In this document: piece after piece, positions 13,849 to 15,497 of the stretch
How positions within the stretch are numbered: position 1 is the stretch's first letter
How the letters are laid out: each line of letters begins with the position of its first letter
Source: Phormidium sp. CCY1219
Lineage (GTDB): Bacteria; Cyanobacteriota; Cyanobacteriia; Cyanobacteriales; Laspinemataceae
DNA: 51,572 bases
Direction of reading: 5' to 3'
Assembly: GCF_035615515.1 (NCBI RefSeq)
Contig: NZ_JAJENT010000802.1
Span: 1-51,572, forward strand
The notes under the pieces: model-generated
Told to the model about the DNA's origin: nothing
The model's input: only the letters and a program-made list of their open reading frames with translations
Database searches by the model: none
Translations under genes and position numbers: made by a program

Positions 13849-15039
13849 ATGACCAAAGCAGATAAAAACCTCGACAATCCGACAGCGAGTTCGGAACTCG
13901 CCAGTGGCGTCATTCGCCTCAAACCGCAACATTACATTCATGTTTTAGACAACAACACGGGGATTACCCGGTTGGAAGTCGGACCGCAAACCGTTACCCT
14001 GCGCGATGGAGAACGACTGCTATAGCAGGTCTAAATCAGTTGTACAATTCTTAACGGGAGTGGGAGCGTCTCGCTCCCTACACTGACAAGCGAGCTGGAA
14101 GCTCGCACTGCCATATCAATTGCATGAATCATTTAGACTAGCTATATTAAAACCGCAACCGGCAATTGTGGATGCGCGATGAAAACGGGGAACCGATCGC
14201 CGATTCTCCACGATTACAAAGAACGCACCGCGCGCACGGTATTCAAACCGGATTTAGTCATGTTAGGTCCGGATGAAGCGTTTACGATTTTAAGTTTATC
14301 CGGAGATAAGCCCAAACGTCCCAATGCGATTAAAGCCCTCGCTTTATTTTTAGGGCCGGATTTTATGACGGATATCTTCACCGTGGAAACTTCGGACCAC
14401 GCGCGGCTGCAATTGCAGTTATCTTATAATTGGCATTTTGATGTCGATCGCACCAACGAAGAACAAGCCGGCAAATTGTTTCAAGTGCCGGATTTTGTCG
14501 GGGCCGCCGGGGTGCAATTTGACGAATTTCACCGCAATTCAGCCCGCATCATTCGTTAAGCAGTGTTTGGGTTAGATGAACAGGGACGGATTCGCGAAGC
14601 GTTCCGGTTTCCGGCGAATAATTTGGTGATGACCAACATCGACATCCAATCCGTGGAACCGGTGGATGAAGAAACTCTAAAAAGCCTGCAAAAGTCGGTA
14701 CAATTGGCTATTCAAATTACCACCGATGCCCAAGAAGCCGCCGCCCGCCACGATGCCGAACGCATCGCCCAAGAAGCCCAAGCGCGACTGGAACGACAGG
14801 CAATTGTAGACAAAGGAGCTGCGGAAGCAAAACGGCGCAATCTGTTAGCATTAGAAGCAGAAAATGTGGCGATCGCCTCTGCGGGACAAGCTACCGCTGA
14901 AGCCCGCGCCAAAGCCCAAGCCGCACAAATTCAAGGGCAATTGCAAGTGGATTTGGCCACCCAAGAAGCTGAAGCTAAGGCGATCGCTTCAGCAGTGGCG
15001 ATCGCCACCACTCTTCCAACGCCGATTCTATGTCAGTAA
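13849..15039 (+). pseudogene. major vault protein (MVP) homolog, decayed. It has an N-terminal repeat-1 fragment, an internal deletion of the central repeat domains, and an in-frame TAA inside the shoulder/cap-helix part.
   Basis: 13849-14025 encodes ..KPQHYIHVLDNNTGITRLEVGPQTVTLRDGERLL* (MVP N-terminus). 14200-14556 encodes ..[42 protein letters not shown], then TAA (14557-14559), then [62 protein letters not shown].. (MVP shoulder and cap helix). Confidence 0.7.
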
Positions 15040-15497
15040 TAAAACCCCGGCTCTTTCCCTCCCGAAGACTCTACAACAGTTTTGAGGGAGGATGCCGGTT
15101 CGACCAATAAAACGATATTGTAGCGTCCCACCACATACAGGATTTCCCCGGGAAGCAAGGTAATATTTTGCTGACACAAGGCGGGCCACCAAGAGTTGTG
15201 AAATCGTACCCGCCCACCGAAATGCGGTACAATGGCTTCGTCTACGATCGCTCGGTTTTCTAACGCCTCTCGATTGACCCCCGAGGCGGGGGGAACACCT
15301 GTGTTATCCCTAACTTTTTCCCCTTTTGAGAAAAGTCCGCCAAAAATTATCTGGAATGGATTTGACTTCATCTGATGCTGTCCTCCCCAGTAGCACTCCG
15401 ATGCGAGCGAGGGTCCTGTGTTTGTGCTTTCTCTTGGGAGAAATCCGCCAGTGTTCTTGACCAGGGTGTTGGTCGTATTTTTTGTACGATCTGGCAC
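15033..15497 (-). CDS. NfeD-like OB-fold domain protein; the likely start is the Met at 15371
   Basis: C-terminal GGRVRFHNSWWPALCQQNITLLPGEILYVVGRYNIVLLVEP fits the NfeD beta-barrel pattern (G.V.f.g..W.A.s...i..G..V.Vv...G..L.V.P). Confidence 0.4.
   Translation of the reverse strand: MPDRTKNTTNTLVKNTGGFLPRESTNTGPSLASECYWGGQHQMKSNPFQIIFGGLFSKGEKVRDNTGVPPASGVNREALENRAIVDEAIVPHFGGRVRFHNSWWPALCQQNITLLPGEILYVVGRYNIVLLVEPASSLKTVVESSGGKEPGFYY

Follow-up and report, generated by a model that had tools for sequence, protein, structure and literature searches.

Genes for major vault protein (MVP), the protein of the vault shell, were reported in cyanobacteria in 2013 (Daly et al., 2013, PMC3762200), and bacterial MVPs were surveyed in 2019 (Sokolskyi, 2019, bioRxiv 10.1101/872010). 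The locus described here lies on a complete 51,572-bp contig of Phormidium sp. CCY1219 (NZ_JAJENT010000802.1), the whole of which is referred to as the window. Positions 13849-14978 of the window are MVP-derived and, as judged from comparative sequence analysis, very probably represent a non-functional pseudogene of a cyanobacterial MVP gene. The remnant belongs by descent to the same family as the MVPs of Moorena/Lyngbya (F4Y3B4), Oscillatoria acuminata (K9TKX8), and Microcoleus PCC 7113 (K9WB38), but it differs from them in having lost most of the repeats, 13 residues of the shoulder domain, the cap ring, and the final part of the cap helix.

When 185,579 species-representative genomes were screened for two MVP peptide patterns, 69 loci were returned, 68 of them credible (the other, L070, is a 307-bp contig); nearly all of the credible loci were from filamentous cyanobacteria, with some from Chloroflexota. 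This count is a lower bound, since divergent myxobacterial and Cytophagales homologs would escape the patterns. Intact orthologs of ~880 aa were found in some 60 species (median length of intact bacterial MVPs, 880 aa); the cyanobacterial MVPs bear the name “colicin uptake protein” in the Prokaryotic Genome Annotation Pipeline. An initial annotation of the window, made from its letters alone, had described bacterial MVP genes as extremely rare; they are rare overall, but with 68 credible loci and a published record since 2013 the description was overstated. When all open reading frames (ORFs) of the loci were clustered, MVP was the only gene conserved across them, the remainder being just spurious ORFs overlapping MVP, and MVP is thus without a fixed partner.

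Identity of the MVP-derived reading frames

The remnant is carried by three plus-strand ORFs, each with a start codon, at 13849-14025 (58 aa), 14179-14559 (126 aa), and 14563-15039 (158 aa). The N-terminal piece matched residues 1-58 of the Laspinema sp. D2d MVP by tblastn (83% identity, E=2.8e-28). The middle piece matched the Pfam hidden Markov models (HMMs) MVP_shoulder (PF11978; E=3.3e-26, 92.1 bits against a cut-off of 25) and Vault_3 (E=5.5e-18, 65.3 bits, profile positions 14-62), and the third piece matched MVP_shoulder at profile positions 85-118 (E=8.9e-8, 32.6 bits); together, the two pieces cover positions 1-52 and 85-118 of the MVP_shoulder profile, two stretches separated by the loss of 13 residues and by a stop codon. 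The same two pieces aligned with residues 471-752 of the solved human/rat MVP (E=2.5e-80), and the kept residues of the remnant share 84-86% amino acid identity with Laspinema MVPs. NCBIfam models gave no match to any of the pieces. Among the hallmarks of MVP, the shoulder domain was thus recovered above its cut-off, and the nine repeats (PF01505, PF17794, PF17795, and PF17796) and a complete cap helix and cap ring were not found. On sequence similarity, the identity of the pieces as MVP is far beyond chance, resting on vault-specific HMMs rather than on generic SPFH models alone.

The initial annotation had proposed a decayed MVP homolog in a cyanobacterium, and the matches to MVP_shoulder and Vault_3 bear this out; the ORFs, the TAG at 14023-14025, the TAA at 14557-14559, and the hairpins discussed below all lie where it had placed them, and the cap-ring end that it reported as missing is indeed gone, with homology ending at about residue 771 of 882 in Laspinema. 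Nor does this look like a genuine small gene: no distinct species carries an intact short ortholog, and the intact relatives encode ~880 aa. In NCBI, the 58-aa stub at 13849-14025 is a stand-alone hypothetical protein (MEB3830652.1/WP_324634087.1), and a JGI cluster mate of the same length (P0138), which differs by S19N, is labeled “major vault protein”. The middle and C-terminal pieces are absent as proteins from the public protein collection, in which the neighboring genes are present. No intact MVP of Phormidium sp. CCY1219 was among the top protein matches, the best of which was 74-77% identical.

Lesion map against intact Laspinema MVP genes

The intact ~882-aa MVPs of Laspinema spp. and a related Oscillatoria strain (L036-L039, L043, and L064), encoded by the closest intact genes, served as the reference for a lesion map, which was built from sensitive tblastn of the Laspinema sp. 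D2d protein, DNA comparisons, and protein alignment. From 5′ to 3′, the region is composed as follows; the inserted element is of a repetitive extragenic palindrome (REP) type.

13745-13848, plus strand: 5′ flank and leader of the former MVP gene; blastn match to the region upstream of intact Laspinema MVP, starting at 13745 or 13793 according to species.
13849-14022, plus strand: MVP codons 1-58, the start of vault repeat 1, in the original frame (tblastn).
14021-14146, no strand: REP-dimer/palindromic element, an apparent 126-bp palindrome TATAGCAGGTCTAAAT...ATTTAGACTAGCTATA (inverted repeat and fold).
14062-14106, no strand: core of the element, two hairpins with a 7-bp stem and a 3-nt loop in inverted orientation, a REP-like doublet.
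14147-14170, plus strand: MVP codons 59-66 (LKPQPAIV) in a second frame; by tblastn, 14144-14170 corresponds to Laspinema residues 58-66, 8/9 identical.
14170/14172, plus strand: 38-nt frameshifting deletion of codons 67-79, relative to Laspinema DNA ATTGTTG[TCCCCCCGCGCCATTATTGTATCGTTGCCAATCCCGTC]ATGCGG.
14172-14213, plus strand: MVP codons 80-~93 in a third frame; by tblastn, 14172-14219 corresponds to residues 80-94.
~14205-14213, plus strand: junction of a ~1.22-kb deletion of codons ~94-500; the protein match restarts at residue 501 (14206) and blastn restarts at 14209.
14206/14209-14556, plus strand: MVP codons 501/502-630, covering the tail of the last repeat (Vault_3) and then most of the shoulder (Pfam and tblastn).
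~14508/14509, plus strand: 39-nt in-frame deletion in the shoulder, C602-A614 (CKAIASRVRGAVA); a 13-residue gap relative to every intact homolog, also seen in DNA comparison.
14557-14559, plus strand: nonsense TAA in place of Gln631 (RIIR*AVFG versus RIIRQAVFG).
14560-14978, plus strand: MVP codons 632-~771, the end of the shoulder and ~2/3 of the cap-helix coiled coil; MVP_shoulder positions 85-118, human/rat MVP to residue 752, blastn to Laspinema ending at 14975-14978.
14979-15091, no strand: rearrangement joint of ~113 bp, homologous neither to MVP nor to the relatives' NfeD module; the MVP match stops at 14975-14978, and homology to three relatives (L078, L079, and L080) ends at 15091/15092.

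The ~1.22-kb deletion removed most of vault repeats 2-9, and ~110 C-terminal codons (~330 bp), which encoded the cap ring and the remainder of the cap helix, are also gone. Intact Laspinema MVP contains four Vault, two Vault_2, one Vault_4, and one Vault_3 domains; essentially all of the Vault, Vault_2, and Vault_4 repeats are lost from the remnant, which retains only a partial Vault_3 and the first ~93 residues of repeats 1-2, the latter in three frames. In all, ~340 of ~882 codons are kept in four frame segments with two stop codons, and the single MVP ORF of ~850-900 aa no longer exists. At codon 631, Laspinema-type sequences have CAA, and other homologs have Q, T, or A.

This map revises the interior of the gene as it was first drawn. 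The 146-bp interval after the N-terminal piece had been described as a gap; it is not empty and holds MVP codons 58/59-66 (14144-14170) and 80-~93 (14172-14213) in two other frames. The homology resumes at Laspinema residue 501, within the final vault repeat (Vault_3), and not in the shoulder as had been stated, and the internal loss, put at ~450 aa, amounts to ~406 plus 13 residues. Two lesions had been overlooked, the 38-nt deletion at 14170/14172 and the 39-nt in-frame deletion at ~14508/14509. The hairpin region, read as a deletion junction with a small inserted or excised element, does contain a small inserted element; however, it is a 124-bp insertion in repeat 1, and the deletion junction lies ~60 bp downstream, at ~14205-14213.

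The remnant and the intact 882-aa Laspinema MVPs most likely go back to one ancestral gene. Six lesions are shown: the net 124-bp element after codon 58, which brings in the TAG; the 38-nt frameshift in codons 67-79; the ~1.22-kb loss of codons ~94-500, and with them most of the nine vault repeats; the 39-nt deletion within the shoulder domain; the CAA to TAA nonsense mutation of codon 631; and a rearrangement at a HIP1 site that removed the last ~110 codons and set the remnant against an unrelated NfeD-like gene. The set gives no order of events. From the codons that remain, no vault shell could be built.

Evidence for neutral drift of the remnant

The same lesions were present in JGI 3300037317, which is 99.3% identical, and on two Logan SRR25621641 contigs (98.6 and 96.8%), all from the same species; identical lesions in three independent assemblies show that they are real and fixed in the species rather than an assembly artefact. 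Among these strains, variants in the MVP frames were six nonsynonymous to one synonymous, compared with 35:51 in neighboring genes (Fisher p=0.027), and the 6:1 ratio fits the neutral expectation of 3:1. Several fell on residues that do not vary among 37 intact MVPs: at G514 the window has K and the other strains have E, and those strains carry serine in place of the prolines of LGPDE and SVEPVD. Over the same codons, intact Laspinema MVPs have ratios of nonsynonymous to synonymous substitution rates (dN/dS, ω) of 0.02-0.04. The lineage of the window has 19.9 unique amino acid changes compared with 10.6 for Laspinema (relative-rate test, p=0.09), and dN to outgroups is 0.157 for the window versus 0.122 for Laspinema. 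As dS between the window and other genera is saturated, with many values undefined, weight was placed on dN, the relative-rate test, and the polymorphisms; dN/dS values of the window vary between two computations through alignment differences, and the first was used for intact Laspinema pairs only. Across this seven-site sample, the remnant shows no purifying selection and drifts neutrally. Scans of the region for promoters, terminators, and composition gave nothing informative, the composition being unremarkable. The window copy departs from the intact proteins at only 2 of the 134 invariant columns; the decay thus appears to be young, and inactivation would be recent relative to the split from Laspinema.

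Several observations weigh against a dead gene. The high amino acid identity to Laspinema and the mere two changes at invariant columns could, taken alone, suggest continued constraint; the relative-rate test is borderline; the polymorphism sample is small, at seven sites; and, as one contig of the genome was examined, an intact second MVP copy may exist elsewhere.

A history without decay in place, in which the MVP block arrived by horizontal transfer or transposition, possibly already fragmentary, would fit the position of both edges of the MVP-derived DNA (13745 and 14978) at synteny breaks relative to Laspinema, and the lack of any conserved neighbor of MVP in 68 loci indicates a fluid genomic context. 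However, DNA identity to Laspinema is comparable for the remnant (77-79%) and for the flanking NfeD/sigma/DUF1822 module (72-82%), as vertical descent predicts; moreover, the upstream leader came with the gene, composition does not set the block apart, and gene order is poorly conserved in these genomes anyway. Arrival of the block from elsewhere is thus considered unlikely.

The 3′ joint and the NfeD-like neighbor

The joint at 14979-15091 contains two HIP1 octamers (GCGATCGC) at 14979-14986 and 14998-15005, the first exactly at the point of 3′ truncation of MVP, as well as the stop codons of both the remnant ORF (15037-15039) and the NfeD-like gene (15033-15035). The region is rich in HIP1 octamers, in keeping with its cyanobacterial origin. 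Laspinema has a HIP1 site inside the 39-nt segment that is deleted at ~14508 of the window. The placement of these sites hints that they were involved in the rearrangements. Beyond the joint lies the following gene.

15036-15371, minus strand: NfeD-like gene, intact, 112 aa, convergent with the remnant; enclosing ORF 15033-15497.

This gene keeps all 34 invariant columns of its small family, which includes several Laspinema paralogs. Its ORF scored 25.0 bits against the NfeD model PF01957, below the cut-off of 29.1; its close homologs (95-117 aa) all have a precomputed PF01957 match and are named NfeD family proteins in their sources. In Laspinema palackyanum, L. olomoucense, and a third relative (L078-L080), the NfeD-like gene is divergent beside a cluster of sigma-like, DUF1822, CHASE2-CHAT, and DUF928 genes, and the same cluster occupies 15776-22432 of the window. 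No MVP was found within 7 kb of the NfeD-like homologs of these three relatives, and no NfeD-like ORF was found in any of the 69 MVP loci (phmmer, E<=10).

The initial annotation had drawn attention to the NfeD-like gene beside a former MVP. The MVP shoulder has an SPFH-like fold, and the likeness to the SPFH (stomatin/flotillin)-NfeD operons lies in a protein with an NfeD-type C-terminal domain beside a former SPFH-like (shoulder) coding sequence; however, the window genes are convergent rather than co-oriented, and the pairing is conserved in no MVP locus. DNA homology to the relatives that have the module stops at ~15091, short of the remnant. Since the NfeD-like gene is conserved in a module that lacks MVP in relatives, its adjacency to the remnant is accidental, and it is a neighbor only, unrelated to the remnant. 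No intact MVP ortholog was found at a syntenic position: tblastn of the window neighbors against the 69 MVP loci gave matches to response-regulator domains only, and the relatives sharing the NfeD/sigma/DUF1822 module are without MVP there.

These data also bear on whether the remnant is partly alive, with one piece, such as the 158-aa ORF at 14563-15039, expressed and co-opted, perhaps together with the NfeD-like protein as in SPFH-NfeD pairs. The pieces do remain ORFs with start codons, few invariant residues are altered, the SPFH-like fold of the shoulder is established structurally, and the neighbor matches the NfeD model, if weakly. On the other side, the TAA divides the shoulder domain, which has also lost 13 core residues, the within-species variants are predominantly nonsynonymous and strike invariant residues, the remnant and the NfeD-like gene are convergent and not in an operon, and the NfeD-like gene belongs to the MVP-less module of relatives and is missing from all 69 MVP loci. 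Partial survival is therefore regarded as very improbable. A more specific form, in which the 158-aa ORF or the 58-aa peptide would be expressed from the retained MVP promoter region and co-opted as a small coiled-coil or SPFH-fragment protein, possibly acting with the NfeD-like protein, is slightly less probable still; if it were true, the parallel architecture of an N-terminal stub and a shoulder/cap-helix piece in Floridaenema (see below) would reflect selection and not coincidence.

The module itself (window 15036-22432; also in L078, L079, L080, and L071) begins with the NfeD-like gene, divergent from a ~627-aa sigma-70-region-4 protein, which is followed in order by DUF1822 (with HEAT repeats), a CHASE2/CHAT protein, and DUF928; it is conserved in Phormidium CCY1219, Laspinema, and another relative. 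In the window, a further CHAT protein and a POTRA/ShlB-type transporter lie past DUF928. Between window 20255-23719 and L071 6146-9568, ~3.4 kb, running from the final part of the CHASE2/CHAT gene through DUF928 into the first part of the next CHAT gene, are too diverged for blastn, save one 175-bp match at 81%, in strains that are elsewhere 92-99% identical; this segment is hypervariable or replaced.

The palindromic element after codon 58

The core of the element consists of two perfect hairpins, gggagcgtctcgctccc at 14062-14078 and gcgagctggaagctcgc at 14090-14106, which are 11 nt apart and lie between arms that form a 29-nt imperfect inverted repeat (14021-14049/14118-14146, 76% complementary). 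As DNA, the element folds at -24.7 kcal/mol (z=-4.3 versus shuffled sequence). The net insertion is 124 bp (14023-14146), and its first bases make the TAG at 14023-14025. In silico removal of 14023-14146 rejoins GAA CGA CTG CTA with TTA AAA CCG CAA CCG in frame, and the rejoined ERLL/LKPQPAIV is collinear, residue for residue, with Laspinema ERLILKPQPSIV (ERLILKPQP). This exact in-frame rejoining on removal of 124 nt shows that the element entered an intact reading frame cleanly. It would comprise 122 bp plus a TA target duplication; it encodes no recombinase and may have been mobilized by a transposase acting on its hairpins or termini.

Copies elsewhere suggest, at the level of sequence, that the element is a member of a dispersed family. 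The double-hairpin core was found on four different large contigs of metagenome Ga0209911, with other flanks and their own long inverted repeats, and the first hairpin was also present at other cyanobacterial loci, in L024 and, twice, in L076. The palindrome heads are GTAGTG on both palindromes in the Ga0209911 copies, and GGAGTG and GCAGTG in the window copy. In SRR25621641, the contigs of the same species stop at 14047 and 14120, in each case 26 nt into the element, and these symmetric breaks fit a repeat interrupting the assembly graph. No second copy was found in the window, the sole contig of this genome examined, and searches of Rfam gave no family for the hairpin element at gathering thresholds, with chance-level matches at E<=10; the hairpin sequence had no matches in the literature. 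In L076 (Ga0209911_100049, 6150-6290), the second copy of the first hairpin adjoins a REP-dimer element and precedes a tandem array of a ~24-nt unit (TGGTGGTAATTGTAGCTCGCTCCC), which reuses the 3′ arm of the first hairpin.

In Anabaena variabilis, GTAG-15 REP dimers sit in long palindromes with TATAGGA...TCCTATA ends and the consensus TATAGGAnTnnnATTTGATT...AATCAAATnnnAnTCCTATA (Di Nocera et al., 2013, PMC3733652). The window element resembles these dimers, which are like REP doublets forming hairpins (REPINs) or miniature inverted-repeat transposable elements (MITEs), in having an inverted pair of palindromes within a long imperfect palindrome with TATAG...CTATA ends; however, its heads differ from GTAGTG, and its stems are not established as GTAG-15 stems.

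Filamentous cyanobacteria carry excisable elements in some genes, and single MVP frameshifts in two long-read metagenome-assembled genomes (MAGs; L044 and L049) could be sequencing errors, but the notion that the interruptions of the CCY1219 gene are assembly or sequencing artefacts, or that the element is developmentally excised to restore the gene, is refuted by the same lesions in the three independent assemblies from different samples. Removal of the recombinase-less 124-bp element would, moreover, leave five lesions, among them coding-sequence losses of 1.2 kb and ~330 bp, and the notion has practically no probability left.

Parallel cases and comparison with known MVP loci

Among the loci recovered in the scan, two further kinds of irregularity were seen. 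L011 (JBLNEP010000122.1, “Actinomycetota bacterium MAG69”, 10001-12310) contains a full-length MVP that is 82% identical to the cyanobacterial query; mis-binning of a cyanobacterial contig is the probable explanation, and not an MVP of actinobacterial origin. In the two long-read MAGs mentioned above, L044 (uncultured cyanobacterium, 9665-12312) and L049 (Hormoscilla sp., 9665-12303), MVP is split by a single frameshift, which could reflect sequencing error or incipient pseudogenization.

A second MVP remnant occurs in Floridaenema evergladense BLCC-F167 (L062 9786-11182, equivalent to L001 4161-5351), where aa 1-71 are joined in another frame to 373-759; it is annotated as a 396-aa hypothetical protein (P0005), with a PEP-utilizers_C fragment and parA/parB-like genes downstream. 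Like the window remnant, it consists of an N-terminal stub and a repeat-9/shoulder/cap-helix piece and has lost its 3′ end; however, all of its breakpoints and neighbors differ from those of the window, and it has no REP-dimer insertion. These differences in breakpoints and neighbors mark it as an independent event, and loss of MVP by internal deletion is thus recurrent.

Together with the Floridaenema remnant, the CCY1219 locus implies that the patchy distribution of MVP in filamentous cyanobacteria results at least partly from recurrent recent loss, a point relevant to the continuing discussion of an ancestral versus a horizontally acquired origin of cyanobacterial MVPs. The significance of the locus is modest: it provides a lesion-by-lesion record of the loss of a bacterial vault-shell gene and a clear case of a cyanobacterial REP-dimer/palindromic element that interrupts a coding sequence and whose target site can be reconstructed to the nucleotide, and it offers neither a new mechanism nor a link between vaults and NfeD. 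Set beside the MVP family already known in filamentous cyanobacteria, this is an ordinary pseudogene, and its novelty is that of a well-resolved new example.

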